In this document: one piece after another, positions 15,353 through 38,159 of the stretch | Layout of the letters: every line of letters starts with the position of its first letter | How positions within the stretch are numbered: the stretch's first letter is position 1 | NCBI GenBank assembly: GCA_900549365.1 | Contig: UROD01000002.1 | Span: 1-38,159 of the forward strand | Direction: 5' to 3' | Source: an uncultured Rickettsiales bacterium | Lineage (GTDB): Bacteria; Pseudomonadota; Alphaproteobacteria; Rs-D84 | Length of the DNA: 38,159 nt | The notes under the pieces: model-generated | Seen by the model: only the letters and a program-made list of their open reading frames with translations | What the model was told of the DNA's origin: nothing | Databases searched by the model: none | Program-made: the position numbers and the translations under genes

Positions 15353-15364
15353 AAAACAACTGCA

Positions 15365-17172: not shown

Positions 17173-17182
17173 CGGGCGCGTA

Positions 17183-18291: not shown

Positions 18292-18374
18292 AATGTTTTT
18301 TTGTGGAATCAAATCCGAATCGCGAACGCGCGTATTATAGCATATTTTTGGGGCTGGTGCAAAAATCTTTGCGG

Positions 18375-18404
18375 TTGAATATAGGTATAAATTCAAGGTA
18401 CAAT
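18375..18404 (+). promoter_or_regulatory. candidate promoter (TTGAAT-18-TACAAT)
   Basis: Hexamers read from the sequence, about 58 nt upstream of the ORF starting at 18462. Confidence 0.4.
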
Positions 18405-18461
18405 ACAGGTAACTAGACAGTCAAATCTAGTGTTCTTTTAACAAAAGGGAAAGGATATATT

Positions 18462-19247: not shown

Positions 19248-19270
19248 TATTTAATTGGAACAAATATGGG

Positions 19271-19299
19271 CCCGCGCAGATTGCGCGGGTCTTTTGTTT
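19271..19299 (+). terminator. rho-independent terminator
   Basis: Stem cccgcgc/gcgcggg with loop agatt, followed by tcttttgttt. Confidence 0.8.
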
Positions 19300-19351
19300 G
19301 AATTTCGTCCTGTTGTGTGCGTGATGGCATCGGCGGTACAATTGCACCAAG

Positions 19352-20113: not shown

Positions 20114-20236
20114 TTTTTTGCCGTATTATTTCTTTGTCGATTAGTTAAATTGTACCAAGTTCGTTTTTGTCATTTGATAAAATTCTGTCAGCCCTTAAAA
20201 TCAGGCGGTTTTGCAATGTTTGTTAAAGAATATTTC

Positions 20237-20265
20237 TTGACAATTCAGGGCGGTGTGGTTATAGT
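20237..20265 (+). promoter_or_regulatory. near-consensus sigma70 promoter of the str operon (TTGACA-17-TATAGT)
   Basis: Read directly from the sequence, about 150 nt upstream of the rpsL ATG. Confidence 0.65.
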
Positions 20266-20413
20266 GTACTAGCTTTCCGTGTAAACAAGGAAAGAGAAAA
20301 ACACAGAAAACTGCGACATTTTGCAGGTTTATAATCAGCGGCGCGCCGTTGAAATAAATCTGGTGGCAGGTTTTGTGCAGACAAAAAAGCAAGAACAAAC
20401 AAAGAGATTTTGA

Positions 20414-20785
20414 ATGCCAACAGTAAATCAACTGATTCGGAAACCTCGTAAAAAGGTCGTTGTGAAATCCACAGCGCCTGATATGATGGAAGCTCCGCAG
20501 AAGCGTGGTGTTTGCACACGTGTGTACACAACCACACCTAAGAAACCTAACTCGGCGCAACGTAAGGTTGCACGTGTAAAATTGGCCAATGGTCGCGAAG
20601 TAACCGCGTACATTCCTGGCGAAGGTCACAATTTGCAGGAACACAGCGTTGTTATGATTCGTGGCGGTCGTGTAAAGGACTTGCCTGGTGTTAAATACCA
20701 CATTATCCGTGGTGTCTTGGATACCAAGGGCGTAGACAGCCGCAAGCAGGGTCGTTCCTTGTACGGTGCAAAGACCGGTAAATAA
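20414..20785 (+). CDS. rpsL: 30S ribosomal protein S12
   Basis: [10 protein letters not shown].. and [16 protein letters not shown] motifs. Confidence 0.98.
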
Positions 20786-20865
20786 TAAATCAACCAAAAC
20801 ACGTAATTAAATTTATGTGAGTAATCTGTGAAAGGCACAGACGAAGAAATAAAAGGAAATATAAA

Positions 20866-21339
20866 ATGTCAAGACGTAAAAGTGCAGCAAAACGTGAAAT
20901 TCTGCCAGATTCCAAGTACAACAATCTGGTTGTTGCAAAATGTATCAATGTAGTTATGTGGGACGGCAAGAAAGAAGTTGCCGAAAATATCGTTTATGGT
21001 GCATTAGAAAAACTGAAAAAAGTCGCAAAAGACGGTGATGAATTGACTGCTTTCTTGGAAGCCGTAGATGCATTGAAGCCATCTGTAGAAGTCAAGGGCC
21101 GTCGTGTTGGCGGTGCGACATATCAGGTTCCAGTAGAGGTTCGTCCTGTGCGTCAACAGACATTGGCGTTGCGTTGGTTGGTAATGTTTGCCCGTAAACG
21201 TGGCGAACGCGCAATGGAAGACAGATTGTTTGGTGAATTGCGTGATGCTTTGTCCGGTCAGGGTGGGGCGTTCAAGAAAAAGATTGATACCCACAAGATG
21301 GCAGAAGCCAACAAGGCGTTTGCTCATTTCCGTTGGTAA
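20866..21339 (+). CDS. rpsG: 30S ribosomal protein S7
   Basis: [18 protein letters not shown].. and [12 protein letters not shown] motifs. Confidence 0.98.
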
Positions 21340-21397
21340 TTAATTTATTAAAAAACAATCGGATTAAACACAAGACAAATAAATAAGGAAAGAATCT

Positions 21398-23479
21398 ATG
21401 TCAGTCGGAAAAACCGCTCCTTTACATATGTACCGCAATATCGGCATTATGGCTCATATTGACGCGGGTAAAACAACAACATCAGAACGTATTCTTTTCT
21501 ATACAGGGAAAACATACAAAATCGGCGAAGTTCACGATGGTGGCGCGACGATGGACTGGATGGAACAAGAACAAGAACGTGGTATTACAATTACATCTGC
21601 GGCAACAACATGCTTTTGGCGTGATCACCGTATCAATCTGATTGATACCCCGGGACACGTGGACTTTACAATGGAAGTAGAACGTTCCTTGCGTGTTTTG
21701 GACGGTGCTGTTGCAGTGTTTGAATCTGTGTCCGGTGTTCAGCCACAGACAGAAACAGTATGGCGTCAGGCAGACCGCTATAACGTTCCACGTATTTGCT
21801 TTATCAATAAGATGGATCGTATTGGTGGTAATTTCTTCCGCTGTGTTGATATGATTCGTGAACGCTTGGGCGCAAACCCATTGGTTGTTAATTTCCCAAT
21901 CGGCGCAGAATCTGATTTCCGTGGCGTTGTTGATGTCGTTGAAATGCGCGCTATTGTCTGGGAAGATGACTTGGGCAAAGACCCTCACATCAAACCAATT
22001 CCAGAAGAATTGCGCGAAAAAGCCGAAGAATTGCACAACAAACTGATTGAAGAAGTTGTGACATTGGACGACGATATTATGGAAGCGTACATGGAAGGTA
22101 CAAAACCAGACGTCGCCACAATTAAAAAACTGATTCGCAAGGGTACGATTGCCCAGAACTTTAACCCAGTTTTGTGCGGTACAGCATTCAAGAACAAGGG
22201 TGTTCAGCCACTGTTGGATGCTATTGTTGACTATTTGCCAAGCCCATTGGATATTCCTGCTATCAAGGGAACCAAGATGGACAAGAAAACGATTATCGAA
22301 CGTCACCCAAGCGCAAGCGAACCATTCGCAGCACTGGCTTTCAAGGTTGCAAATGACCCATTCGTTGGGAACCTGATGTTCATTCGTATTTATTCTGGTA
22401 AATTGACATCTGGCTCATACATCTACAACTCTAACCGTGACAAACGTGAACGTGTTGGTCGTATGTTGTTGATGCACTCTAACCAGCGTGAAGAGATCAA
22501 AGAAGCATCAGCCGGTGACATTATCACATTGGTCGGTATGAAAGAAACAATCACAGGTGATACACTGTGTGATGAAGCGAATCCAATCATCTTGGAAAAT
22601 ATTCACGTTCCAGAACCTGTTATCAGTATTGCGGTTGAACCAAAAACCAAGGCCGACATTGAAAAGATGTCATTGGGCTTGCAGGCATTGGCCAAAGAAG
22701 ACCCTTCGTTCCGCGTGTCGGTTGACGAAGAATCTGGTCAGACAATTTTGGCTGGTGTTGGTGAATTGCATTTGGAAATTTTGGTTGATCGTTTGCTGCG
22801 TGAATTCAAGGTTGACGTTAACGTCGGTGAACCACGTATTGCATATCGTGAAACATTCCGCAAGGCAGTTACCGAAGAATACACCCACAAGAAACAGTCG
22901 GGTGGTTCGGGTCAGTACGCACAGGTTAAAATCGAATTCGAACCATTGGAACCAGGCAAAGGTTATGAATTTGAAAACAAGATTGTCGGTGGTGCTATTC
23001 CAAAAGAATACATCCCTGGCGTTGAAAAGGGTTTGAAGATAGCCCAACAGACAGGTGTTCTGATTGGCTATCCGACAGTGGATTTCAAGGCAACGTTGGT
23101 TGATGGTAAATATCACGAAGTTGACTCCAACGTGTTGTGCTTTGAAATTGCGGCGCGTGCTTGCTTCCGCGAAGCCATGAAAAAAGCATCGCCAAAGTTG
23201 CTGGAACCGATTATGAAGCTTTCGGTAACTACGCCGGAAGAATACGTCGGTGACATTATCGGTGACTTGAACAGCCGCCGCGGACAAATCAATGGCATTG
23301 AAACTCAGTTTGGTAACCAGCAGATTTCAGCCTATGTTCCGTTGGCTAATCTGTTCGGATACGTCAAGACATTGCGTTCTTTGTCACAGGGGCGTGCAAA
23401 TCCTTATATGGAACTGTCGCACTATGCCGAAGTACCGCAGAACGTCGCAGATGAAGTTATCAAAAAGCTGACGAAATAA
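21398..23479 (+). CDS. fusA: elongation factor G
   Basis: 693 aa with [23 protein letters not shown] and NKMDR motifs. Confidence 0.98.
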
Positions 23480-23599
23480 AAAAATAAAAAAAGATTGTGA
23501 TTTTTGATTTCTGGTTTATTATATAGGCGTGAAATCCAAATAATAACCGGAAATCAAAGTCAGAAATCATTAACAAGCCAAGCCTAAGGAGAAAAAACT

Positions 23600-24787
23600 A
23601 TGGCAAAAGAAAAGTATATAAGAACCAAACCGCATGTTAATGTTGGTACGATTGGTCACGTTGACCACGGTAAAACAACATTGACTGCTGCTATCGTTCA
23701 TTACTATGGTGTCGGCGCCGACAAAGAAAAAGGCGTTGATAAAATCGATAACGCACCAGAAGAACGTGCACGTGGTATCACAATCAACACCGCACACGTT
23801 GAATATGAAACAGAACACCGTCACTATGCACACGTTGACTGCCCAGGACACGCGGACTATGTTAAAAACATGATTACCGGCGCGGCCCAGATGGACGGTG
23901 CAATCTTGGTTGTTGCTGCAACAGACGGCCCAATGCCACAGACACGTGAACACATCTTGTTGGCACGTCAGGTGGGTATTCCAAAAATCGTTGTTTATTT
24001 GAACAAATGCGATTTGGCGAACGATCCTGAATTGTTGGAATTGGTTGAAATGGAAGTTCGTGAATTGTTGTCTGCAAATGACTTCGATGGCGACAAAGCA
24101 CCTATTATTCGTGGTTCCGCTGTTTCCGCATTGGAAGGCAAGAACGACGGTTTGGGCAAAGAATCCATTGATGCGTTGTTGAAGGCATTGGATGAATATA
24201 TCCCACTGCCAGAACGTCCAGTTGACAAACCATTCTTGATGCCAATCGAAGACGTATTCTCGATCACAGGTCGTGGTACAGTTGTTACAGGCCGTATCGA
24301 ATCTGGTACAGTCAAAGTTGGTGACGAATGCGAAATCGTTGGTTTGCGTCCAACACAGAAAACAACAGTTACCGGCGTAGAAATGTTCCGCAAGATGTTG
24401 GATCAAGGTGAAGCTGGTGATAACGTTGGTTTGCTGTTGCGTGGTACCAAGAAAGAAGATGTAGAACGTGGCCAGATTATCTGCAAACCAGGTTCTATTA
24501 CACCACACACAGAATTTGAAGCCGAAGTTTATATCTTGACGAAAGAAGAAGGTGGACGTCACACAGCGTTCTTCAGCAACTATCGTCCTCAGTTCTACTT
24601 CAGCACAACAGACGTAACTGGTACAATCACATTGCCAGCAGACAAAGAAATGGTTCTGCCAGGTGATAACGTTCGTATCTCTGTGCAATTGATTGCACCT
24701 ATTGCTATGAGCGAAGGTCGTCGCTTTGCTATCCGTGAAGGCGGACGCACAGTTGGCGCTGGTGTTGTATCAAAGATTAACAAATAA
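23600..24787 (+). CDS. tuf: elongation factor Tu
   Basis: 395 aa with [22 protein letters not shown] and NKCDL motifs. SD aaggag. Confidence 0.98.
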
Positions 24788-24796
24788 CAACATAAA

Positions 24797-24842
24797 CGGG
24801 TCGGTGTAACTGGATATACAAACGCCAGTGATTACCGGCCCG
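24797..24842 (+). other. imperfect hairpin in the tuf-rpsJ spacer
   Basis: cgggtcggtgtaactgg pairs with ccagtgattaccggcccg. No T-run follows. Confidence 0.4.
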
Positions 24843-24866
24843 CACAAACATAAGGAAAACGAACAA

Positions 24867-25178
24867 ATGGTACCTGCATCTAAAATTCGAATCAAATTGA
24901 CAGCGTTTGATCATCGCGTATTGACGGACTCTGTTGATGAAATCGTAAAAACGGCAAAGCGCACTGGCGCAGACGTCGTTGGGCCAGTTCGCTTGCCAAC
25001 ATTGATTCAGAAATTTACAGTCAACCGTTCCCCACACGTCGATAAAAAATCGCGTGAACAATTCGAAATTCGCAATCATAAAGCGGTCGTCGATATTGTC
25101 AACCCAACCCCTCAGACAGTTGATGCCCTGATGAAGTTGGATTTGGCGTCCGGTGTTGATGTAAAAATTAAATTGTAA
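24867..25178 (+). CDS. rpsJ: 30S ribosomal protein S10
   Basis: 103 aa from the internal ATG ([20 protein letters not shown]..) with SD aagga. The track start at 24828 adds a non-conserved extension. Confidence 0.95.
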
Positions 25179-25266
25179 AAATTGAGTAAGTAAAATTGTT
25201 AGCGTCGAGTATTTTGGATTCTGAACAAAAATGCTTCGACCTACTGGCAAAATAAAAGGCAAAAAA

Positions 25267-25989
25267 ATGAAACGTAGCGGATTAATAACAACAAAAATAG
25301 GAATGACGCGTCTGTATGATGATGCCGGCGCAGCGCACCCAGTAACAGTTCTGTCTGTGGGCGATTGTGCTGTCATTGGAAATCGCACGCAGGACAAGAA
25401 CGGCTATGTCGCGAATATCTTGGGTATGCGCGAAGCCAAGGCAAAACATGTTGCAAAGCCACAGGCGGTTGCAGCGGAAAAAGCAGGGGTAAAGCCGTAT
25501 CGCAAAGTGGTGGAATTCCGTGTATCGGACGAATGTGTTATCCCAGCAGGGACACAGTTGTCTGCGTCTCATTTTGTTGCCGGTCAATTCGTTGATGTCC
25601 AAGCAACAAGCAAGGGTAAGGGCTATCAAGGTGCGATGAAACGTCATAACTTTGGTGGTAAGGAAGCGACACACGGTGTTTTGAAAGCACATCGTTCATT
25701 GGGTGGTACTGGTATGCGTGAATGGCCAGGCCGCGTTCTGAAAGGCAAAAAGATGGCCGGTCAGATGGGTAATGAAACGGTTACTGTTCAAAACTTGAAG
25801 GTCTTTGGAACAGACGCAGCCGAAAACTTGATTTTCGTCGAAGGCGCAGTTCCAGGCGCAAACGGTACTTTTGTATTGGTTACCGATGCGATTAAAAAAG
25901 AAAACAAAGATTTGCCAGTTCCAACTGCACAGACAAGCGCACCAGCAGCAGAAGTTGCCGCCGATGCAGCAGAAACAGTTGCGGAATAA
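25267..25989 (+). CDS. rplC: 50S ribosomal protein L3
   Basis: 240 aa from MKRSGLITTKIGMTRLYD, with KGKGYQGAMKRHNF. Carries an Ala-rich C-terminal tail. Confidence 0.95.
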   Translation: MKRSGLITTKIGMTRLYDDAGAAHPVTVLSVGDCAVIGNRTQDKNGYVANILGMREAKAKHVAKPQAVAAEKAGVKPYRKVVEFRVSDECVIPAGTQLSASHFVAGQFVDVQATSKGKGYQGAMKRHNFGGKEATHGVLKAHRSLGGTGMREWPGRVLKGKKMAGQMGNETVTVQNLKVFGTDAAENLIFVEGAVPGANGTFVLVTDAIKKENKDLPVPTAQTSAPAAEVAADAAETVAE

Positions 25990-26017
25990 CAATGGGTCAA
26001 CAGTAAGGTGAATTAAA

Positions 26018-26638
26018 ATGCAAATAGAAGTTATAAATTTTGATGGCAAAGCAGTTGGCAAAGTTGAATTGGCCGACAGCATCTTTGGTTTGGACCCACG
26101 CGCAGACATCTTGCACAGAGTTGTTACTTGGCAGCGTGCAAATTCCCGCGCTGGTACACATGCAGTGAAAACTGTATCTGATGTCCAGGGCAGTGGTAAA
26201 AAAGCGTTCAAACAAAAGAAAACAGGTAATGCACGTCAGGGTGAAAAGTATAATGTTCACATGCGTGGTGGTGGTGTTGTTCATGGTCCAGTTGTCCGTG
26301 ATCACTCTATCGATTTGCCAAAGAAAATCCGTAGTTTGGGCCTGAAAATGGCGTTGTCGTCCAAGGTTAAAGATGGTTCGCTGGTTGTAATTGATTCTGA
26401 AAAATTGGCAACCGCAAAAACAGGTGTGTTTGCAAAACAATTGAAAAAATTGGGTTTGGATTCAGCATTGTTTGTTGGTGCGGACGCGTTGGACGAAAAC
26501 TTCAAGAAATCTGCGGCTAACATCGCAAACATTGATGCGTTGCCAACGATTGGTTTGAATGTTTTGGATATCTTGAACCACAATAAATTGGTTTTGACGG
26601 CTGACGCAGTCAAAGCGGTAGAAGCAAGATTGGCATAA
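26018..26638 (+). CDS. rplD: 50S ribosomal protein L4
   Basis: GSGKKAFKQKKTGNARQG motif and conserved operon position. Confidence 0.95.
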   Translation: MQIEVINFDGKAVGKVELADSIFGLDPRADILHRVVTWQRANSRAGTHAVKTVSDVQGSGKKAFKQKKTGNARQGEKYNVHMRGGGVVHGPVVRDHSIDLPKKIRSLGLKMALSSKVKDGSLVVIDSEKLATAKTGVFAKQLKKLGLDSALFVGADALDENFKKSAANIANIDALPTIGLNVLDILNHNKLVLTADAVKAVEARLA

Positions 26639-26658
26639 TTTAATAAAAGGTCAATGAA

Positions 26659-26985
26659 ATGGCAGAAAAGAAAGTAGAAAAGAAAATCGTTGCGACCGCC
26701 GGTATTTATGATATACTGCGTCGTCCGATAATCTCGGAAAAGACAGCAAAATTATCCGAGAGCAATGGTATTGCGTTCGAAATTGCCGCAAATGCAACAA
26801 AAGAAGATGTTGCGCGCGCAGTTCAGGCGATTTACAATGTGAAACCTGTCAAGGTTAACATTGTTGTTGCCAAGGGCAAGGTTAAATCCTTCCGTGGTCG
26901 CAGCAGCGGCACACAACGCACTGTAAAGAAAGCATATGTGTCTTTGCCAGCTGATGCAAAATTGGATTTGGCAGCAAACGCATAA
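26659..26985 (+). CDS. rplW: 50S ribosomal protein L23
   Basis: YDILRRPIISEKT motif. Carries an N-terminal MAEKKVEK extension. Confidence 0.95.
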   Translation: MAEKKVEKKIVATAGIYDILRRPIISEKTAKLSESNGIAFEIAANATKEDVARAVQAIYNVKPVKVNIVVAKGKVKSFRGRSSGTQRTVKKAYVSLPADAKLDLAANA

Positions 26986-27001
26986 GTAAATAATAAAAAT
27001 C

Positions 27002-27047
27002 GCCAAGGCAGATAATCTGGAATTTATTCAGACGTTATTGCCTTGGC
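27002..27047 (+). other. extended hairpin (about 46 nt) in the unusually long rplW-rplB spacer
   Basis: Outer stem gccaaggca/tgccttggc (9 bp), plus inner ataa/ttat and tctgga/tcaga pairing. No T-run follows. Confidence 0.55.
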
Positions 27048-27068
27048 AGAAACAAAGGTAAGAATAAA

Positions 27069-27902
27069 ATGGCATTAAAGCACTATAAGCCAATGACCCC
27101 AGGGACGCGTGGATTGACACTGGTTGACCGCAGCGGTTTGCATCGCGGCGCGCCTGAAAAGGCATTGACAGTTGGTTTGAAATCCAAGGGTGGTCGTAAT
27201 AACTTTGGTCATGTAACCGTTATGCACCAAGGTGGTGGTCACAAACGTAAATATCGTTTGATTGATTTTAATCGTAAAAAGACAGGTGTTCCAGCAACAG
27301 TTGTTCGTTTGGAATACGATCCTAATCGTACTGCATTCATCGCATTGATTGAATACAAAGATGGTGTTCGTTCTTATATCTTGGCACCACGTGATTTGAA
27401 AGTTGGCGATACCGTTATTTCTGGTGTTCGTGAAGATATCAAACCAGGTAACGCGATGCCATTGAAAAATATGCCAATCGGTACAATTGTGCACAACGTT
27501 GAATTGAAACCAGGGGCAGGCGGCCAGTTGGCACGTAGTGCTGGTTGCTATGCTCAGTTGATGGGTAAAGACGGTGTTTATGCACAGATTAAAATGAACA
27601 GCGGTGAATTACGCAAAGTTCATTCCGATTGTATGGCCACAGTTGGCAGCGTTTCTAACCCAGAACAACGCAATGTCAATTTGGGCAAGGCCGGTCGCGC
27701 ACGCTGGTTGGGTATCCGTCCATCTGTTCGCGGTATGGCGATGAACCCGAACGATCACCCAATGGGTGGTGGTAATGGTCATTCCAAGGGCCACGAACCT
27801 GTGTCGCGTACTGGTATTCCAGCCAAGGGATATCGTACCCGCAGCAACAAACGTACTGCAAAGATGATTATCCGCAGCAGACATTTGGCAAAGAAGAAAT
27901 AA
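27069..27902 (+). CDS. rplB: 50S ribosomal protein L2
   Basis: [13 protein letters not shown] and [11 protein letters not shown] motifs. Confidence 0.98.
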
Positions 27903-27909
27903 TAAATAG

Positions 27910-27932
27910 CCCTGCATCTATATGGTGCAGGG
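27910..27932 (+). other. intergenic hairpin with CTATATGG apex (rplB|rpsS)
   Basis: ccctgcatc-tatat-ggtgcaggg. Confidence 0.55.
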
Positions 27933-27956
27933 GACATAAGAAAAACGGAGTAATTG

Positions 27957-28241
27957 ATGTCTCGTTCAGTTTGGAAAGGTCCTTATGTTCACCCATCTGT
28001 CTTGAAAAAGACCGCTGCGGCGAATGAAAAAGATGACCGTAAACCAATTAAAACTTGGTCTCGTGGCAGCACAATTGTGCCACCAATGGTTGGGCTGACT
28101 TTTGAAGTTCACAATGGTAATAAATTTATTCCAGTTTCAATCGTAGAAGATATGATTGGTCATAAATTGGGTGAATTTGCGCCAACACGTACGTTCAAAG
28201 GTCATGCGGCAAATAAAAAGGCCGCGGCAGCCAAGAAATAA
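27957..28241 (+). CDS. rpsS: 30S ribosomal protein S19
   Basis: [11 protein letters not shown].. and [10 protein letters not shown] motifs. Start taken at ATG 27957; the track start at 27954 is a TTG. Confidence 0.97.
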
Positions 28242-28242
28242 T

Positions 28243-28259
28243 GATTTCTAGATGGAATC
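28243..28259 (+). other. intergenic hairpin with CTAGATGG apex (rpsS|rplV)
   Basis: gatttc-tagat-ggaatc. Confidence 0.45.
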
Positions 28260-28283
28260 CGCAAGAATAATAAGGTTATAGTT

Positions 28284-28694
28284 ATGACAACAGCAAGATA
28301 TGGAATTAAAGATAATCAGGTTCGCGCATTCAACAAAATGATCCGCGTCAGCCACCAGAAATTGAATCTGGTTTGCGACACAGTTCGTGGTTTGCCTGTT
28401 GAACGTGCAATTGATGTCTTGAAATTTTCAAAGAAACGCGTATCTGACGAAGTTTTGAAAACTTTGATTTCCGCGATTGCAAATGCAGAACACAACAAAA
28501 ATCTGTCGGCAGATTCTCTGTACGTCAAAGAAATTTGGTGTGGTAAAGCGTTGACAATGAAACGTATTATGGCCGGCCCACGTGGCAGTGCTCGTCCGAT
28601 TTTGAAACCATTTTCAAATCTGACAATCGTTTTGGAATCAGGTGCAGCACCTGCGAAAAAAACAGCAGCAAAAACTGCAAAGAAAGCAAAATAA
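28284..28694 (+). CDS. rplV: 50S ribosomal protein L22
   Basis: RVSHQKLNLVCDTVRG motif. Lys/Ala-rich C-terminal tail. Confidence 0.95.
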   Translation: MTTARYGIKDNQVRAFNKMIRVSHQKLNLVCDTVRGLPVERAIDVLKFSKKRVSDEVLKTLISAIANAEHNKNLSADSLYVKEIWCGKALTMKRIMAGPRGSARPILKPFSNLTIVLESGAAPAKKTAAKTAKKAK

Positions 28695-28730
28695 TAAATC
28701 GTGGCACGTGGTATGGGGCAACCCTGAATA

Positions 28731-28745
28731 AAACCTATATGGTTT
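28731..28745 (+). other. intergenic hairpin with CTATATGG apex (rplV|rpsC)
   Basis: aaacc-tatat-ggttt, nested inside a possible longer stem gtggca(28701)/tgccac(28756). Confidence 0.45.
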
Positions 28746-28780
28746 CAAGAACACTTGCCACAAACTAAGGAAAACAAAAG

Positions 28781-29482
28781 ATGGGACAGAAAGTATCACC
28801 AATCTCGTTGCGCGAATTTATCAACAAGATTACTGACTCGCGCTGGATGGCCGGCAAAAAGGACTATGCGAACCTGTTGGCCGAAGATATCAAAATTCGC
28901 AAATTTATTGAAAAGAAGTTGAAAAAAGCCGGCTTGGCCAAGGTTGTTATTGAACGCTTTGCCAAGAAAGTTGTTGTGACAATTCACACTTCTCGTCCGG
29001 GTATGATTATCGGCAAAAACGGTGCTGATATTGAAACTTTGCGTAATGATATCAAAAAGTTGGTCAAAAACGATCAGGTCGTTGTGAACATTTACGAAGT
29101 TCGCCGTCCAGATTTGAATGCTCAACTGGTTGCACAAAATATTGCGCAGCAAATCGAAGGTCGTGTTTCCTTTAAGCGTGCAATGAAAAAGGCGGTTCAA
29201 AACGCCCAGAAAGCAGGCGCGCAGGGTATCAAAGTTATGTGCAGCGGTCGTCTGAACGGTGCGGAAATTGCCCGCAGTGAACAAATCCGCGAAGGTCGTA
29301 TTCCTCTGCATACATTGCGTGCTGACATTGACTATGCGTCAATTCAGGCGAAAACAACATACGGCGTTATCGGTGTAAAAGTTTGGATTTACACAGGGGA
29401 TGTCGTAAATAAAGAAAAGCTGGCTTCTGAAATGGCACGCCCAACTGAATATGCCGGCAGCAGCGAAAAGAGAAACAAGTAA
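28781..29482 (+). CDS. rpsC: 30S ribosomal protein S3
   Basis: [11 protein letters not shown].. with the KH domain and [10 protein letters not shown]. Confidence 0.97.
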
Positions 29483-29488
29483 TTTTTG

Positions 29489-29509
29489 CTGGTATCTATA
29501 TGGTACTGG
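29489..29509 (+). other. intergenic hairpin with CTATATGG apex (rpsC|rplP)
   Basis: ctggtatc-tatat-ggtactgg. Same apex as 27910..27932, with compensatory stem changes. Confidence 0.5.
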
Positions 29510-29550
29510 GGAAAACAAAAATTAGCAAAAGCAATAAAAGGTAGTTTATT

Positions 29551-29964
29551 ATGTTGATGCCAAATAAAACAAAGTTTCGCAAACAGCACAAAGGCCGTAT
29601 TCACGGCGTCGCCAAAGGCGGCAGCGAACTGGCATTTGGTTCGTTTGGACTGAAAGCCATGACACCAGAACGCGTTACAGCGCGTCAGATCGAAGCGGCG
29701 CGTCGCGCCATTACACGTCACATGCGTCGTATGGGAAAATTGTGGATTCGCGTATTCCCTGATGTGCCTGTGACCAAAAAACCTGCCGAAGTCCGTATGG
29801 GTAAAGGTAAAGGTGCGGTTGAATATTGGATTTGCCGTGTTAAACCAGGACGTATTATGTTTGAAATTGACGGTGTAAAACCAGAAATCGCATACGAAGC
29901 GTTCGCGTTGGCGGCGGCAAAATTGCCAGTAAAAACCAAAGTTGTTGAACGTAAAGCGAATTAA
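29551..29964 (+). CDS. rplP: 50S ribosomal protein L16
   Basis: [16 protein letters not shown].. motif. Confidence 0.97.
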
Positions 29965-29993
29965 GTATAACCGCACATAAAAAGGTCAATAAA

Positions 29994-30188
29994 ATGGCAG
30001 AAAAGAAAGTTGAAAAAGAATCTTTGACAGTTGAAGCATTGCAGAGCAAGCTGGCTGATTTGAAGAAAGAGCAAATGAACCAACGCTTTCAACATGCGGC
30101 TGGTCAGTTGCCAAAGTCACATGTAATGCGTCAGACACGTCGTGAAATCGCACGCGTCAAGACAAAGTTGAATGCTGACAAAAAATAA
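29994..30188 (+). CDS. rpmC: 50S ribosomal protein L29
   Basis: ..QRFQHAAGQL.. motif. N-terminal MAEKKVEK is identical to that of rplW. Confidence 0.93.
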   Translation: MAEKKVEKESLTVEALQSKLADLKKEQMNQRFQHAAGQLPKSHVMRQTRREIARVKTKLNADKK

Positions 30189-30205
30189 AAAATTGTCGAT
30201 TTTTG

Positions 30206-30233
30206 TTGAGATTTCTAAAAATTTAGTTATCAT
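30206..30233 (+). promoter_or_regulatory. candidate internal promoter (TTGAGA-16-TATCAT) in the rpmC-rpsQ spacer
   Basis: Hexamers read from the sequence. They sit in a 154-nt non-coding gap. Confidence 0.35.
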
Positions 30234-30342
30234 ATGCCGAAATCGGTTAAATAAAACCAAAGAATCAGTTGCTGTTTTGCGCGTTTTAGTGTAAAATTAA
30301 GCCCGCAAAACAAGCACTGGCAAATGTATAAGGACACAAGTT

Positions 30343-30612
30343 ATGCCAAGACGTATACTGCAAGGAACAGTAAAAAGTACAGCGAACGACAAAACAGTCG
30401 TCGTCGAAGTGGAACGTCGTTTCCGTCACCCGCTGTATGGCAAGTTCGTAAAGCAGAACAAAAAGTACAAGGCGCACGATGAAACCAACGAATACAAGGT
30501 TGGTGACATCGTTGCGATTGAAGAACATCGTCCAATTTCCAAGACAAAATCTTGGGTGGTCAAGGGGCGCGTTGGCGTTTCCAAGGACGAAACGGTAGAG
30601 GTCGTTGACTAA
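30343..30612 (+). CDS. rpsQ: 30S ribosomal protein S17
   Basis: [27 protein letters not shown] motif. Confidence 0.96.
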
Positions 30613-30723
30613 TACCGCCGGACAGGGTCTTTGAGGTTGGCGTTAGTTTTTTGGCGTGCAACAGTCGGGCCCTATAACAAAGCGGCGGGGGATTGCCCCG
30701 CGCGCAGGACAAGGAAAAAAGTT

Positions 30724-31098
30724 ATGATTCAGAATGAAACAGTTATGACGGTTGCTGACAACTCTGGTGCGCGTAAAGCAATGTGCATCAAGGTTTTGGG
30801 TGGTTCTCACCGTCGTTATGCGACAGTTGGCGACAAAATTGTCGTCGCCATCAAAGAAGCGATTCCACGTGGTAAAGTACAAAAGGGTACTGTGCAACGT
30901 GCTATCATCGTGCGTACAAAATTCCCGGTAAAACGTCCGGACGGATCTATTATCCGCTTTGACGATAACGCGGTTGTTTTGATAAACAAGAACAACTTTG
31001 AACCAATTGGCACACGTATCTTTGGGCCAATTGCACGTGAAGTTCGCCGCAAATACGATGTTCAAAAAATCGTATCTCTGGCACCGGAAGTTATATAA
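30724..31098 (+). CDS. rplN: 50S ribosomal protein L14
   Basis: 124 aa from the internal ATG ([18 protein letters not shown]..) with SD aggaaaa. Confidence 0.97.
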
Positions 31099-31117
31099 TA
31101 TACAAGGGGTTACAGAT

Positions 31118-31420
31118 ATGAAAATCAAGAAAGGCGACGAAGTCGTAGTTATTTCGGGAAAGTACAAAGGCGTCAAAGGTAAAGTACTGGAAGCGCGCCC
31201 AACAGAATCTCGCGTTGTGGTAGAGGGTGTAAACCGCCACAAATGGCATGTTAAACCAACACAGGAACAGGCGGGTCATATCGTTGACCGCGAAGCACCA
31301 GTGCATGTTTCTAATGTTGCGTTGGTTGACCCAAAGACAAAAAAAGCAACACGCGTTGGATACAAAATGTCTGGCGATAAAAAAGTTCGCGTTGCTAAAA
31401 AGTCAGGCGCAGAATTGTAA
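31118..31420 (+). CDS. rplX: 50S ribosomal protein L24
   Basis: 100 aa from [18 protein letters not shown]. The longer track ORF would overlap rplN. Confidence 0.96.
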
Positions 31421-31471
31421 GTATAAACAGTTCCCGCTGTTACGGGAACACAGAGTGTAAGGAATAAAAAA

Positions 31472-32017
31472 ATGCAAAGCAGATTGCGTGAAATTTATGA
31501 AAAAGAAATTGTACCTGAATTGGTAAAAGAATTCGGGTATACAAACAAGTATGCTGTGCCAAAATTGTCCAAAATCGTTTTGAATATGGGCGTTGGCGAA
31601 GCAGTTAGTGATAAAAAGAAATTGGATTCTGCCGCCGCTGATTTGACAGCGATTGCTGCACAGAAATCCGTTATCACACATGCAAAGAAATCTATCGCGA
31701 CATATCGTCTGCGCGAAGGTCAGGCCATTGGTACCAAGGTCACATTGCGTGGTAAAAGAATGTACGATTTCTTGGATAAACTGATTACGGTTGCGTTGCC
31801 ACGTGTCAAGGACTTTCGTGGTTTGTCAAAATCCAAGTTTGATGGTCGCGGTAATTATGCGTTCGGTATCAAGGAACACTTGATTTTCCCGGAAATTTCC
31901 GTTGATAAAATTGACGCAATTCGCGGTATGGATATCGTCATCGCTACAACAGCGAAAACTGACGACGAAGCACGTGCGTTGCTGACGAAAATCGGCTTGC
32001 CGTTGGTTTTGAAATAA
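31472..32017 (+). CDS. rplE: 50S ribosomal protein L5
   Basis: [16 protein letters not shown] motif. Confidence 0.97.
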
Positions 32018-32032
32018 TAAAAAGGTATAAAA

Positions 32033-32335
32033 ATGGCTAAATTAGCGTTGATAAACAAACAGAAAAAACGTGAAAAGATGGTCGCCCAGTATGCCAAAAA
32101 GCGCGAAGCGATCAAGGCGAAGATGTCTGTGAATGCAACACCAGACGAACGCATGGATGCAATGAAAAAAATGGCAAAGTTGCCACGTAATGCGAATCCA
32201 ACACGTTTGCATAATCGTTGTTCAGTTACTGGTCGTGCACGCGGGTTCTCTCGCTTGTTCGGTCTGTGCCGCCAACAGTTGCGCACAATGGCGTCCGAAG
32301 GGAAATTGCCAGGTGTACGTAAATCCAGTTGGTAA
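32033..32335 (+). CDS. rpsN: 30S ribosomal protein S14 (long form)
   Basis: ..RCSVTGRARGF..LPGVRKSSW motifs. Confidence 0.96.
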   Translation: MAKLALINKQKKREKMVAQYAKKREAIKAKMSVNATPDERMDAMKKMAKLPRNANPTRLHNRCSVTGRARGFSRLFGLCRQQLRTMASEGKLPGVRKSSW

Positions 32336-32420
32336 AACAAAACAACCCTGTTGTGGACAATGCAGCAGGGGTTAAACAATAGTGCAGGGGACGATGTCCC
32401 GTGTGACGAAGGAGTAAAAG

Positions 32421-32819
32421 ATGTCATTATCACACCCAATCGGCGATATGTTGACTCGTATTCGTAATGGTCAGAATGCGGGTAAAGAAACAATCACCGT
32501 TCCAAACAGCAAACTGCGCGCAGCAGTGCTGGCCGTCTTGAAAGACGAAGGTTTTATTACAGATTTCCACAAAGAACAGATTGACGAACATCGTGCCAAT
32601 TTGGTCGTTGAATTAAAATATGTCAATGGCAATGGCGCAATCCAAGAAATTTCTGTCGTGTCCAAACCTGGTCGCCGTGTTTATTCCGGCAGTGCAAAAA
32701 TGCCAAAGGTTATGGGCGGACTGGGTATCGCAATCGTTTCCACACCAAATGGCGTTATGACAGATCACAAAGCGCGCCTGATGAATGTTGGTGGCGAAGT
32801 GCTGTGCAAGGTAATCTAA
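32421..32819 (+). CDS. rpsH: 30S ribosomal protein S8
   Basis: DMLTRIRNGQNA motif. Confidence 0.97.
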   Translation: MSLSHPIGDMLTRIRNGQNAGKETITVPNSKLRAAVLAVLKDEGFITDFHKEQIDEHRANLVVELKYVNGNGAIQEISVVSKPGRRVYSGSAKMPKVMGGLGIAIVSTPNGVMTDHKARLMNVGGEVLCKVI

Positions 32820-32841
32820 TTTAGAAGTAAGGATTGAAGTT

Positions 32842-33402
32842 ATGTCTCGTGCAGGAAAACATCCAGTAAAATTAAAAGACGGTACGTCAGCGGCAATCGT
32901 TGGTGACGTTCTGGTCGTAAAAGGCCCAAAGGGTGAAATTAAATTACCTTTGGATACAAAACATGCAGGTTTGGTACATGTTGTTGTCGAAGAAGGTCAG
33001 GTGGTCGTTACACCAAAAGATGCCGAAGATAAAATTTCGCGCGCAATGTGGGGCACAATGACCCGCAATGTTCGCTGTGCAGTAGAAGGTGTATCTGACG
33101 GTTTTTCCAAAGATATGTATATGAAAGGTGTTGGTTACAAAGCATCTGTTTCTGGCAATAAATTGGTTTTGGTTGCTGGTTATTCACATGATATCATTAT
33201 GGAAATACCAGAAGGTTTGACCGTTGTTATGGGCGAAACCCCAACCGAATTTAGCATCAAGGGTATTGATAAGTGCTTGGTCGGTCAATTCGCGGACAAG
33301 GTTCACAAGGTTCGCAAACTGGACCCATACAAGGGCAAGGGTATCAAGTTCGCCGGCGAGCAGCTTCGTCGCAAGGCCGGCAAGACCGCTGGAGCTAAAT
33401 AA
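32842..33402 (+). CDS. rplF: 50S ribosomal protein L6 (contains the codon-usage switch near its 3' end)
   Basis: MSRAGKHPVKL.., GYSHDI and PYKGKGIKF motifs. Lys codons are AAA 12 / AAG 1 in the first 139 codons and AAA 2 / AAG 9 in the last 47. Confidence 0.95.
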   Translation: MSRAGKHPVKLKDGTSAAIVGDVLVVKGPKGEIKLPLDTKHAGLVHVVVEEGQVVVTPKDAEDKISRAMWGTMTRNVRCAVEGVSDGFSKDMYMKGVGYKASVSGNKLVLVAGYSHDIIMEIPEGLTVVMGETPTEFSIKGIDKCLVGQFADKVHKVRKLDPYKGKGIKFAGEQLRRKAGKTAGAK

Positions 33403-33417
33403 TAGGAGGACATAGAT

Positions 33418-33780
33418 ATGGCATTGAATAGAATTGAAAGAAGAAGAAGAATCCATTACCGTATCCGTAAGCACGTCAACGGAACCGCCGAGAGGCCAAG
33501 AATGGTTGTCTTCAGAAGCAACAAGCAGATCTACGTCCAGGTTGTGGACGATCAGAAAGGCGTGACGCTCGTCGCCGCCGCTTCCAATGACAAGGTTCTT
33601 GCCGCTGAGTGCAAGGGCAAGAATGGAATCGAGGCAGCAGCCATTGTCGGAAAGGCGATCGCAGAGCGTGCCAAGGAGAAGGGAATCACCACCATCTCTT
33701 TTGACCGTGGAGGTTACCTCTATCACGGTAGGGTTAAAAGTTTGGCTGACGCTGCCCGTGAAGGTGGCCTTATATTCTAA
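33418..33780 (+). CDS. rplR: 50S ribosomal protein L18
   Basis: [20 protein letters not shown] motif. 9 of 14 Arg codons are AGA/AGG. Confidence 0.96.
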
Positions 33781-33790
33781 TTGAAAGACT

Positions 33791-34309
33791 ATGGCAAATA
33801 CAAATGTTAAAAGAGTAAAGACTTCTGATCTTGAATTGAAAGACAGACTGGTCGCCATCCAGAGAGTAACCAAGGTTACTAAGGGTGGTCGTCACTTCCG
33901 CTTTGCCGCCATCGTGGTAGTGGGTGACGAGAACGGCGTTGTTGGTTATGGTCTTGGAAAAGCCAATGAGGTAACAGCAGCCATCGCGAAGGGTGTCGAG
34001 GACGCTAAGAAGAACCTTGTGAAGATCCCTGTGATCAACACGACCATTCCTCACGAGCAGGAATCCAAGTTCGGAGGTTCTGTAGTGTTTATGAAGCCTG
34101 CGGCTCCTGGTACCGGTGTGAAGGCCGGTGGCGCTATGCGTGCTGTGTTTGAGTCTGCCGGTATCCAGAATGTGCTTGCAAAGTCCAAGGGTTCATCCAA
34201 CCCTCACAACCTTGTCAAGGCTACGGTTGCCGCTCTTACCCAGATGAGGGATGCCTACACAGTGGCCGGTCTCCGTGGAATTCCTATGAGCAAAGTATTT
34301 AACGGTTAG
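33791..34309 (+). CDS. rpsE: 30S ribosomal protein S5
   Basis: [21 protein letters not shown] motif. Confidence 0.97.
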
Positions 34310-34323
34310 GAGGACACACAGTT

Positions 34324-34506
34324 ATGGCAAAACTTAAGATAACACAGGTAAGAAGCAAAAACGGATGCACCAAGAGGCAGATCGCTAATCTGACCACACT
34401 TGGAATCCGCAGGATGCACCAGACCGTGGAGGTCGAGAAGACTCCGGTGACAGAAGGCCAGCTCGCCAAGATCCGTCACCTCGTTGAAGTTGAAGAAATT
34501 AATTAA
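34324..34506 (+). CDS. rpmD: 50S ribosomal protein L30
   Basis: 60 aa beginning MAKLKITQVRS.., located between rpsE and rplO. Confidence 0.9.
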   Translation: MAKLKITQVRSKNGCTKRQIANLTTLGIRRMHQTVEVEKTPVTEGQLAKIRHLVEVEEIN

Positions 34507-34518
34507 GAGGACGAAGAG

Positions 34519-34971
34519 ATGAAACTGGAAAATTTGAAGCCTGCAAAAGGTGCGACTCATAACAGCAAGCGTCTTGGCCGCGGTCAGGGTTCCGGTAAGG
34601 GTGGTACTTCCACCCGTGGTACCAAGGGAGCACAGGCCCGCGCCGGCTATGAACACAAGATCGGTTTCGAGGGTGGTCAGATGCCTATTCAGAGACGTGT
34701 TCCTAAGTTCGGATTCAAGAACCCGACCAGAATTGAGTACAAGGCGGTCAATGTGGCTGCCATCCAGGCCCTTTCCGAGCAGCTTGGCAAGGTGGAGATC
34801 GGACTTGAGGACATCAAGGCCGCAGGACTTGCCGACGCTAAGGAACTCGTTAAGGTTCTTGGCAACGGTGAGATCACCGCTGCTGTCACTGTAACCGCTG
34901 ACGCTTTCTCCGCTTCAGCTGTCTCAAAGATCGAAGCCGCCGGTGGTAAGACAATTGTAATCGGCAAATAA
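34519..34971 (+). CDS. rplO: 50S ribosomal protein L15
   Basis: GRGQGSGKGGTSTRG motif. Confidence 0.96.
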   Translation: MKLENLKPAKGATHNSKRLGRGQGSGKGGTSTRGTKGAQARAGYEHKIGFEGGQMPIQRRVPKFGFKNPTRIEYKAVNVAAIQALSEQLGKVEIGLEDIKAAGLADAKELVKVLGNGEITAAVTVTADAFSASAVSKIEAAGGKTIVIGK

Positions 34972-34973
34972 CG

Positions 34974-36314
34974 ATGAAGAAGTTTATTGAGACAATAAAG
35001 AACATTTTCAAGATCGAGGAACTCCGTACGAGACTCGGCTACACGTTCCTTCTCATCCTGGTCTACAGGTTGGGTTGCTTCATCGTGCTGCCGGGTATCG
35101 ACACGACCCTGCTCGCTTCCCTTCAGGACAGCACCCAGCAGGGCCTCGTCGGTCTGTTGAATATGTTCTCCGGAGGTGCCTTCGGCAACGCTTCCATCTT
35201 CGCGTTGGGAGTTATGCCTTACATCTCCGCTTCAATCGTGATTCAGCTTCTCGGTATGTTCGTCCCTTACTTCAGGAAACTCCAGATGGAGGGCGAAAGC
35301 GGCCGTAGGAAGATGAATCAGCTCACCAGGTACCTTACCATCCTCATCCTCTGCATCCAGGGCCCTGCGTACATAGCTTCCATCCACAGCCAGATCCCGG
35401 GAGCCGCGTTCCTCGCGGAGACCCAGCTCGGCTGGAGCAGGTTTATGTACAACCTTGTGGCGACCATCATTTTGATGTCCGGCTCAATGTTCGTGATGTG
35501 GCTTGGTGAGAGGATCACAGACAGAGGCATCGGCAACGGTATCTCCCTGATCATTATGATCGGTATCGTGGCCCGTCTGCCTTTCGCTCTTGTCAGCGAG
35601 GTTGGTACCAAGCTCAGCACAACGACCGGTGGCGGTCCTATCGCCCTGATCGTCGAGCTTATCATCTGGTTCCTTGTCATCGTGGCGACAATCGCCCTTG
35701 TACAGGGTGTCAGAAGGGTTCCTGTCCAGTATGCAAAGAGAGTTGTCGGTAACAGACAGTATGGTGGTGTGCGTCAGTACATCCCTCTGAAGATCAATGC
35801 CGCCGGCGTTATGCCTATCATCTTCGCCCAGGCGTTGACGCTGTTCCCGCTTCTGTTCTCCCGCTTCGACGCGACCAGAGGCCTCGCCGCCACTCTCGGC
35901 AACTACACCGGATTCTGGTATAACCTGATTTTCGGATTCCTCGTTGTCATCTTCACATACTTCTACACAGCCGTTACGGTAAACCCTACTATGATGGCTG
36001 AAGATATGAAGAAGAACGGTGGATTCATCCCTGGCGTGAAGCCTGGAAAGGCCACGGTCAACTACCTTGACTCCATTATGTCAAAGGTGACTCTCCCTGG
36101 CTCCATATTCCTCGCCATCATCGCCATTCTCCCAGCATTCGCCAGGATTATGGGTGTTCAGGATCAGTTCGCAAGCTTCTATGGTGGTACCTCACTGTTG
36201 ATCCTCGTGGGCGTTGTCCTTGACACACTTCAGCAGATAGAGAGTTATCTTCTGATGCGTCACTATGACGGTCTGATGAAGACCGGACGTATCAGCGGAC
36301 GCTCAGGAATGTAA
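34974..36314 (+). CDS. secY: preprotein translocase subunit SecY
   Basis: 446 aa with about 10 TM segments and the GVMPYISASIVIQLL motif. Confidence 0.97.
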   Translation: MKKFIETIKNIFKIEELRTRLGYTFLLILVYRLGCFIVLPGIDTTLLASLQDSTQQGLVGLLNMFSGGAFGNASIFALGVMPYISASIVIQLLGMFVPYFRKLQMEGESGRRKMNQLTRYLTILILCIQGPAYIASIHSQIPGAAFLAETQLGWSRFMYNLVATIILMSGSMFVMWLGERITDRGIGNGISLIIMIGIVARLPFALVSEVGTKLSTTTGGGPIALIVELIIWFLVIVATIALVQGVRRVPVQYAKRVVGNRQYGGVRQYIPLKINAAGVMPIIFAQALTLFPLLFSRFDATRGLAATLGNYTGFWYNLIFGFLVVIFTYFYTAVTVNPTMMAEDMKKNGGFIPGVKPGKATVNYLDSIMSKVTLPGSIFLAIIAILPAFARIMGVQDQFASFYGGTSLLILVGVVLDTLQQIESYLLMRHYDGLMKTGRISGRSGM

Positions 36315-36335
36315 TTTTGATAATCAACAGGATTG

Positions 36336-37109
36336 ATGGTTAAGCCTAAGACAGAAGAGGAAATCGAGCTCTTGCGCGAGAATGCCATACTTGTCTCAAA
36401 GACATTGGCGGAAGTCGGTAAGGTGGTCGCCCCGGGTGTGACAACCGCGAGGTTGAATGAGGTGGCCGAGACTTTTATCCGTGACAACGGAGCCATTCCT
36501 AGTTTTCTTGGATTCGAGGGTTTTCCCGCCGCGATATGTACATCAGTCAATGATGTCGTTGTCCACGGTTTCCCGTCGGACTATGTCCTTAAGGAGGGCG
36601 ACATCGTGACCGCCGACATAGGCACCCTGTACAAAGGCTATAACGGTGATTCGGCTTACACTTTCCCTGTCGGGGAAGTGGACGCCGAGACCCGGAAGCT
36701 TATGGATGTGACCAAGGCTTCGCTCTACAAGGGCATCGAGGCTGCGGTCGCCGGCAACAGGACTGGTGACATCGGACACGCGGTGCAATCGTACGCCGAG
36801 TCATTCGGCTTCTCGGTGGTCCGTGAACTTGAAGGACACGGTCTCGGGAAGGAGATGCACGAGGCTCCGGGCGTTCCGAACTACGGACGTCAGGGTCACG
36901 GGTGCAGGCTTGTGGATGGAATGGTCATCTGCATCGAACCAATGATCAATGCAGGCGGCAGAGGAGTGTATGTGGCCAGAAATGGTTGGGCTGTACACAC
37001 TTCCGACCACAGGAACGCGGCTCACTATGAGCTTACGGTTGTTGTTCGTAAAGGCAAGGCGGAACAACTGTCAACATTTGATTATATTGAAAGTACTGGT
37101 AAATTTTAA
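36336..37109 (+). CDS. map: type I methionine aminopeptidase
   Basis: CTSVNDVVVHGFP, DIVTADIG and GHGLG..HE motifs. Start taken at ATG 36336; the track start at 36333 is a TTG. Confidence 0.95.
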   Translation: MVKPKTEEEIELLRENAILVSKTLAEVGKVVAPGVTTARLNEVAETFIRDNGAIPSFLGFEGFPAAICTSVNDVVVHGFPSDYVLKEGDIVTADIGTLYKGYNGDSAYTFPVGEVDAETRKLMDVTKASLYKGIEAAVAGNRTGDIGHAVQSYAESFGFSVVRELEGHGLGKEMHEAPGVPNYGRQGHGCRLVDGMVICIEPMINAGGRGVYVARNGWAVHTSDHRNAAHYELTVVVRKGKAEQLSTFDYIESTGKF

Positions 37110-37121
37110 AGTGTTTTTTCA

Positions 37122-37340
37122 ATGTCCAAACAAGTAGCGATAGAACAAGACGGAAAAGTGATCGAGACTCTTCCTAACGCGATGTTCAAGGTGGAGCTTG
37201 AGAACGGTCACGTCCTTCTCTGCAACATCTCCGGCAAGATGAGAATGAATTTCATCCACATCCTCCTTGGAGACAAGGTGCGGGTTGAAATTTCACCTTA
37301 TGATTTGACAAAGGGAAGAATATCCTTCAGGTACAAATAA
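37122..37340 (+). CDS. infA: translation initiation factor IF-1
   Basis: [35 protein letters not shown]. Confidence 0.97.
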
Positions 37341-37353
37341 AAATATTCACGAT

Positions 37354-37470
37354 ATGAAAGTCAAAACATCCATCAAGAAGCGCAGCGAAGATTGCAAGAT
37401 CGTCAGACGCAAAGGCCGTCTTTATGTCATCTGCAAGAAGAACCCTAAGTTCAAGATGCGCCAGGGATAA
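37354..37470 (+). CDS. rpmJ: 50S ribosomal protein L36
   Basis: Absent from the ORF track because it is under 60 aa. Hand translation gives [38 protein letters not shown] followed by a stop. Confidence 0.93.
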
Positions 37471-37507
37471 CAGTAGTTTGTAAAACAAATAAAGTCAAAG
37501 ATAAATT

Positions 37508-37885
37508 ATGGCAAGAATAGCCGGTGTTGATTTACCGAACAACAAAAGAGGTGAGATAGGTCTTACCTACATCTACGGTATCGGCCGCAGCTCCGCGAGA
37601 GAGATTCTCCAGAAGTGCGGAATCGATTACGACATCAAGGTCGGTGAATGGAACGACGAGCAGGTCGCCGCTATCCGTACCCTCATCACCGAGGAGTACA
37701 AGATCGAGGGTGAGCTTCGTTCCTCCGTCCAGATGAACATCAAACGACTGATGGATATCGGTTGCTACAGAGGAATCCGTCATCGTATCGGACTTCCTGT
37801 ACGTGGCCAGAGCACCAAGAACAATGCCCGCACAAGAAAGGGTAAGAAGAAGACCGTTGCAAACAAGAAGAAAGCAACCAAATAA
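37508..37885 (+). CDS. rpsM: 30S ribosomal protein S13
   Basis: [10 protein letters not shown].. and [27 protein letters not shown] motifs. Confidence 0.97.
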
Positions 37886-37898
37886 ATCTTGATGAATT

Positions 37899-38159
37899 AT
37901 GGCAAAGAAGACAACAACAGCAAAAAAGAGAGTTGTAAAAGTTGAAGCTACTGGTGAAGCACATATTTCATCAACCTTCAATAACGTTATCATCGCTCTC
38001 ACAAACAATGTTGGCCAGGTTATCAGCTGGTCTTCAGCTGGTAAGAGCGGCTTCAGAGGCTCTAAGAAAAACACTCCGTATGCAGCTCAGGTTGCAGCAG
38101 AGGATGCTGCCAAGACAGCGTTTGATGCAGGCCTCCGTAAAGTAAAGGTCTATGTTAAG
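37899..38159 (+). CDS. rpsK: 30S ribosomal protein S11 (3' end runs off the window)
   Basis: Hand translation from ATG 37899 gives [50 protein letters not shown].. The frame stays open to the last base. Confidence 0.93.

Follow-up and report, generated by a model that had tools for sequence, protein, structure and literature searches.

Our analysis suggests that the contig studied here is almost certainly a metagenome assembly chimera of three gut bacteria, which we call sources A, B and C, and that it records no biological gene replacement. The window, i.e. the whole stretch of DNA that was analysed, is this complete contig of 38,159 bp (its exact SecY has a record on a contig of that length), and it ends 367 nt past the second of two switches between genomes. 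Each of the three parts is near-identical to another genome that runs collinearly through the junction. A and B each stay in their own lineage there in dozens of independent assemblies, at 98-100% identity to the respective sides of the window. Both switches fall inside short exact words that the adjoining sources have in common (18 nt for A and B, 36 nt for B and C). The junction between A and B is not reproduced, and its pieces are found separately elsewhere, on scaffold_362 and scaffold_3737 of another assembly. The sequence-only reading of this DNA had implied two sources, not three, as it missed the second switch at 37757-37792. The window is divided as follows.

1..33327, + strand: segment unique to source A, a gut alphaproteobacterium resembling Ca. 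Enterousia (identity to the A loci and to scaffold_362, and cluster labels); 1-33345 with the word shared with B
33328..33345, + strand: junction 1, the 18-nt exact word TACAAGGGCAAGGGTATC (YKGKGI, rplF codons 163-168), from base-by-base comparison
33346..37756, + strand: segment unique to source B, a Bacteroidales species resembling Ca. Cryptobacteroides (near-identity to the B loci, to contig L073 and to scaffold_3737); 33328-37792 with both shared words
37757..37792, + strand: junction 2, a 36-nt exact word in the 3' part of rpsM common to B and C, from discordant bases
37793..38159, + strand: segment unique to source C, a second Cryptobacteroides species resembling 'Bacteroides sp. CAG:770' (mismatch counts and names); 37757-38159 with the word shared with B

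Composition and codon usage across the contig

An abrupt switch of codon usage and G+C inside the ribosomal-protein operon had been claimed from the letters alone, and codon tables, Fisher tests and G+C all bear it out. Past 33 kb the composition and the codon usage change abruptly at one point, and the change exceeds the variation from gene to gene. The G+C in 1-kb windows is 0.38-0.50 up to ~33 kb (about 0.44) and 0.51-0.55 for 33.5-37 kb. In the per-gene codon table every gene from tuf to rpsH has a GC3 of 0.32-0.52, with Glu nearly all GAA, Arg written as CGN with AGR almost absent, and Leu as TTG. Every gene from rplR to rpsM has a GC3 of 0.52-0.69, with more AAG than AAA and more GAG than GAA; AGA and AGG make up about half of Arg there, and Leu is CTT, CTC or CTG. 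The codon counts over the pooled genes of the two sides are given below.

Lys AAA/AAG: A 257/135, B 24/80, Fisher p 6e-15
Glu GAA/GAG: A 228/6, B 28/50, Fisher p 8e-31
Arg CGN/AGR: A 240/11, B 41/45, Fisher p 8e-22
Leu TTR/CTN: A 197/58, B 15/99, Fisher p 4e-32

The same reading had proposed comparing the tetranucleotide profiles left and right of the switch, and this comparison agrees with the codon data. Seven chunks of ~4.8 kb left of the junction have mutual correlations of 0.68-0.95, and the correlation of the same seven chunks with 33346-38159 drops to between -0.02 and 0.27. We rejected gradual codon-usage variation within one genome, driven by expression level or by leading and lagging strands, since the switch takes place within 18 nt and the two sides match different organisms at >=98% identity.

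At the level of single genes, the counts given earlier are exact: Lys in rplF is AAA 12 / AAG 1 over codons 1-139 and AAA 2 / AAG 9 over codons 140-186, and 9 of the 14 Arg codons of rplR are AGR. The breakpoint had been set at about 33.25 kb, which is too far to the left; the true site is 33328-33345, i.e. rplF codons 163-168. The codons 140-162 of rplF (33259-33327) hold 4 AAG : 1 AAA, as against 12 AAA : 1 AAG earlier in the gene, and this AAG-rich stretch is native source A sequence, being present in 11 of 11 A loci. The compositional change thus appears to start ~70 nt before the true junction because source A's own rplF turns locally to AAG.

One further feature begins near the switch.

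33184..33873, - strand: antisense ORF of 229 aa opposite the 3' part of rplF, rplR and rpsE, lying entirely over well-supported r-protein genes

This ORF exists as it had been listed, and the earlier opinion that it is spurious also stands, given the well-supported r-protein genes opposite to it. It arises from the codon bias of segment B and is no gene.

The junctions and the source genomes

The position of junction 1 was defined with 10 A and 10 B loci, which all agree. The last base discordant with B is 33327 and the first base discordant with A is 33346, so the crossover lies somewhere inside TACAAGGGCAAGGGTATC. In BLAST searches of the window against these loci, the A matches extend to 33345 and the B matches begin at 33313. 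This 18-nt word is the longest exact word common to the 20-kb loci of A and B, the next longest being 14 nt. The junction had been placed in the conserved YKGKGI segment of L6 before, and the locus comparison bears this out. We also scanned for the 24-mer GAMCCWTACAAGGGCAAGGGTATC (33322-33345, with two degenerate positions) and found it in at least 120 species-representative genomes of many phyla (loci L032-L151); its carriers among the matches listed include Lachnospiraceae, Bacteroidales, Saccharibacteria, Gastranaerophilales, Lentisphaerae, Verrucomicrobia and others.

The join leaves an open reading frame that fuses the two L6 genes.

32842..33402, + strand: hybrid rplF ORF of 186 aa, residues 1-168 from A and 163-186 from B, with 163-168 common to both

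The native L6 proteins have 183 aa in A and 186 aa in B. An exact look-up in an index of 153 billion genes found the hybrid L6 on no other contig. A junction 39-mer carrying the diagnostic bases of both sides had 0 matches in 185,579 species-representative genomes and 0 matches in 241 million metagenome records. A search for the same junction in independent assemblies, which the earlier reading had named as a check, thus found none, and the junction is unique to this contig. The hybrid L6 is an artefactual protein and not a property of any organism.

We collected the source A loci (L011-L020) by an exact-protein look-up of S8 (32421-32819). The A-type S8 is indexed in 226 blocks of the collection, and the contigs read reach 935 kb. 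They carry fusA-tuf-S10 through S8, and past S8 they continue with their own L6 (183 aa), L18 (118 aa), S5 (189 aa), L30, L15, SecY (438 aa), S13 and S11. By BLAST over 22422-33345, segment A is 98.2-99.5% identical to L011-L020 and L022. The left 22 kb of the window are collinear with other A contigs, e.g. the 672-kb scaffold L026, and so segment A is itself coherent. It encodes hypothetical genes, lepA, an integrase-associated island, acpP-fabF, an acyl-CoA synthetase and yceG, and then the r-protein part, rpsL-rpsG-fusA-tuf-rpsJ through rpsH, followed by rplF codons 1-162. An exact look-up of LepA read from a GTG start gave nothing on record, probably as its start codon differs from that of the called gene, and FabF was used instead.

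The taxonomy of source A is taken from cluster labels, and the scan with the degenerate 24-mer gave the B species representative (L073) but no A representative among the matches listed. The names in clusters of >=90% identity are 'Alphaproteobacteria bacterium', 'Candidatus Enterousia sp.', 'Ca. Enterousia onthequi' and 'Pseudomonadota bacterium', and Ca. Enterousia is classed in Alphaproteobacteria.

Several other observations were made on the A lineage. Six successive + strand ORFs of 135-483 aa occupy 26-6265 of the window, none of them with a Pfam match. The coding strand there is A-rich (AT skew 0.14-0.32), and the region is strain-variable, as L026 aligns to it in separate pieces of 87-97% identity, some of them in a different order. 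There is also a 244-nt internal repeat, with copies at 2819-3062 and 4623-4866 that are 97.5% identical. Between lepA and acpP-fabF, the interval 8568-13243 holds a cluster of small ORFs with a G+C of 0.38-0.43 and no Pfam matches, together with a gene for an Arm-DNA-binding (integrase N-terminal) domain; the arrangement recurs in the source A contigs L026-L029 and looks like a resident integrated element or remnant. The rpsK-rpoA interval of L011-L020 holds a GmrSD-type (PF03235/PF07510) gene or a small HTH gene, depending on the strain, and also a conserved 120-aa ORF on the minus strand.

The source B loci (L001-L010) came from an exact-protein look-up of L18 (33418-33780), the B-type of which is indexed in 448 blocks of the collection. 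Upstream of L18 these contigs carry their own L16 through S8 and L6 (186 aa); downstream of it they carry S5 through SecY, and then Map, IF-1, L36, S13, S11, S4, RpoA and L17. The window differs from them over 33328-37792 by about 6-20 mismatches (~99.9% identity), and segment B is 99.7% identical to L073, a species-representative MAG contig named 'uncultured Bacteroidales bacterium'. The segment includes the last 18 codons of rplF, rplR, rpsE, rpmD, rplO, secY, map, infA, rpmJ and most of rpsM. Its labels in clusters of >=90% identity are 'Candidatus Cryptobacteroides sp.', 'Rikenellaceae bacterium', 'Alistipes sp.' and 'Bacteroidales bacterium', and Ca. Cryptobacteroides is classed in Bacteroidales. 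The proposal of a proteobacterial left side and a Bacteroidales right side agrees with these labels, which give Alphaproteobacteria on the left and Bacteroidales on the right.

The argument from gene order holds in part. The order secY-map-infA-rpmJ-rpsM-rpsK on the right is that of Bacteroidales, in line with the Bacteroidota arrangement claimed, but the order secY-adk-rpsM expected of Alphaproteobacteria is not that of source A, in which secY is directly followed by rpsM-rpsK with no adk, map, infA or rpmJ (loci L011-L020, in the region ~12784-19400, which also takes in the rpsK-rpoA interval). As a separate observation on L001-L010 (5440-6876 of these loci), a divergent DUF4294 gene and BacA/FtsX genes, not rpsC, precede rplP-rpmC-rpsQ, so that this lineage of Bacteroidales has its S10 operon in separate parts, unlike the usual arrangement.

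Source C was found by searching the metagenome collection with a 50-mer from the contig tail, which gave 15 contigs. Three of them (L153, L155 and L165) match the window from 37757 to its end with 0-2 mismatches (99.5-100%) and differ from it upstream. The last base discordant with these C loci is 37756, and the first base discordant with B is 37793. The final 367 bases show 62 mismatches and a 3-nt indel to B (~83% identity), and those C contigs that run through the entire operon share only about 78% identity with B in it. In L165 the exact S13 is that of 'Bacteroides sp. CAG:770' and the exact L17 that of 'Candidatus Cryptobacteroides bacterium'. Segment C completes rpsM and, past a spacer, enters rpsK, of which it has the first 87 codons before the contig stops. 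The second join also leaves a hybrid frame.

37508..37885, + strand: hybrid rpsM ORF, 5' part from B and 3' part from C, with an amino-acid sequence that happens to equal a common Bacteroidales S13

The earlier warning that features right of ~33.3 kb may not come from the same organism proved correct, as nothing right of 33345 belongs to the alphaproteobacterium. In addition, we observed that L061 (CAVIXF010000064.1, 4909-5271), deposited under a 'Candidatus Gastranaerophilales' genome, has 82% nucleotide identity to segment C (the 3' end of rpsM and rpsK), equal to the match of the Cryptobacteroides MAG L106. Mis-binning or a similar chimeric join may explain L061.

Independent assembly, mechanism and alternative explanations

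Two rare A alleles led us to an independent assembly, ENA ERZ28622153 of BioSample SAMN03283293 (the OBRE15-1 scaffolds). Only a few contigs carry the S17 allele of the window (30343-30612), and just two in the whole collection, the window's own contig and scaffold_362, carry the 337-aa protein encoded at 1554-2567. Scaffold_362 has 33,364 bp and begins at window base 4. The two stretches of it that were compared, equivalent to window 4-5567 and 24343-33345, are 100.000% identical to the window. Past 33345 its last 22 bases are A's own TTCTATAAGGGCGAACAAATCC, exactly as in all other A loci. From the full identity, the rare alleles and the shared contig start, SAMN03283293 is evidently the sample from which the window came.

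Source B is represented in this assembly by scaffold_3737 (L021; 4,352 bp), which stands alone, covers window 33450-37789 with 0 mismatches and ends at 37789, i.e. at junction 2. It has a 10-N scaffold gap at the rplO/secY boundary, equivalent to window 34966, which suggests that source B is thinly covered in SAMN03283293. A 12-nt 'indel' between the window and this scaffold was considered as a strain difference and rejected, as it is the 10-N gap. This independent assembly, evidently of the same sample, is the decisive comparison: it resolves A and B separately, and the A strain in it has its native L6.

In our explanation a long alphaproteobacterial contig (A) was almost certainly joined to a short, fragmentarily assembled and probably low-coverage Bacteroidales fragment (B), and this fragment to a piece, a few hundred bases long, of another Bacteroidales species (C). 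The joins lie in identical words of universally conserved r-protein genes (18 nt in rplF and 36 nt in rpsM), and at such words assembly graphs touch. The data themselves show three sources, overlaps exact to the base, a junction found nowhere else and pieces kept apart by another assembly; the step that made the join is an inference. There the assembler may walk from one genome into the next, either by itself or along a chimeric library molecule or an erroneous read that bridges the graphs. The smallest k of the common metagenome assemblers is 21. The 18-nt overlap is shorter than that, and hence a join at junction 1 purely by shared k-mers needs an extra element. Candidates for the producing step are a small-k de Bruijn step, a scaffolding or gap-closing step and an in-vitro template switch; another could be a variant of the B strain or a read error, CCA for CCT at 33325-33327, which would extend the 18-mer to a shared 21-mer. 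At junction 2 the 36-nt overlap would suffice for a graph step at small k. Chimeric contigs are known to arise where shared k-mers or sequencing errors connect the graphs of separate genomes (PMC7299287).

Among the alternatives, the best surviving one is a chimera made in vitro, where a template switch between A and B at the 18-mer during library-preparation PCR or amplification gave bridging reads and the assembler followed them faithfully. A physical bridging read would explain the join with no shared 21-mer, the overlap being below the usual minimum k, and it would also place the crossover at the longest shared word. Against it, there are two independent joins in 4.5 kb, and the second, with its overlap of 36 nt, is one that an ordinary small-k graph step would take, so that graph traversal is the simpler account; the independent assembly, apparently built from the same reads, does not have the join. 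We regard this route as rather improbable, and it is in any case a sub-mechanism of the same artefact which leaves the verdict unchanged.

A genuine cross-phylum recombination would mean that the alphaproteobacterium exchanged its own distal r-protein genes, from the C-terminus of L6 to S13, for Bacteroidales DNA at the 18-nt microhomology, and that the hybrid operon exists in cells. The reading frame is kept, the hybrid L6 is full length and plausible, and an exchange facilitated by homology would likewise put the crossover at the longest shared word. We nevertheless give this reading almost no weight. The A strain of 100% identity, evidently from this sample, keeps its native 3' end of L6, and none of the other assemblies searched has the junction. 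The 'acquired' DNA shows no amelioration, with 0 mismatches to the B scaffold that stands alone in the assembly of SAMN03283293. Past segment B the contig does not go back to A; a second conserved word leads it into a third organism, and 367 nt later it stops. In such a cell, about ten parts of the ribosome and translocon would come from another phylum, and both would still have to work. A variant of this reading, in which a minority subpopulation of A has a real Bacteroidales distal spc/alpha operon beside the wild type, the independent assembly captured the wild type only, and just the B|C join is artefactual, appears to us equally far-fetched.

The sequence-only reading had favoured an assembly or binning chimera. 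The assembly part is supported by the mosaic, the unique junction and the separate scaffolds, but the binning part fails on the continuity of the sequence: it is exceedingly improbable that correct contigs of different organisms were merely put in one bin, as both switches fall within ORFs of a single unbroken contig, with no Ns.

Consequences and comparison with known systems

The value of this case is for quality control only. The region 33346-38159 should not be attributed to the alphaproteobacterium, which affects rplR, rpsE, rpmD, rplO, secY, map, infA, rpmJ, rpsM and rpsK, and the 186-aa hybrid L6 is an artefact that is now in public databases. If the contig sits in a genome bin, it would supply universal single-copy markers of the wrong phylum and hide the missing native ones, and it could distort concatenated r-protein phylogenies and falsely suggest a cross-phylum transfer. 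The case shows that cross-phylum mis-joins are possible at words of only 18 nt in universally conserved genes. Since the 24-mer in rplF is common to at least 120 species of many phyla, we speculate that this spot may be a recurrent seed for other inter-genome mis-joins.

The contig resembles the inter-genomic chimeric contigs of short-read metagenomes in its abrupt switch of composition and taxonomy, in that each side is near-identical to a separate genome, in its junctions within short exact words of conserved genes, in that the A|B junction is not reproduced in other assemblies, and in its short foreign tail at the contig end. It differs from them in two respects: the overlap between the A and B representatives is 18 nt, below the usual minimum k, and the A|B join spans phyla, which is rarer than joins of related strains or species such as B|C.

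At face value the contig also resembles a transfer or replacement of r-protein genes, as the distal genes of the cluster have the signature of another phylum. Real r-protein replacements are inherited, recur across strains and assemblies and have host DNA on both flanks. Here the junction is unique and the same strain carries the native sequence; the 11 A loci and scaffold_362 are all native A, and the distal flank is organism C, followed by the contig end.

With respect to the S10-spc-alpha cluster, each source has an ordinary version, with str-tuf-S10-spc and secY then rpsM in A, and secY-map-infA-rpmJ-rpsM-rpsK in B and C. The cluster in the window is a composite of the three that does not exist as such.
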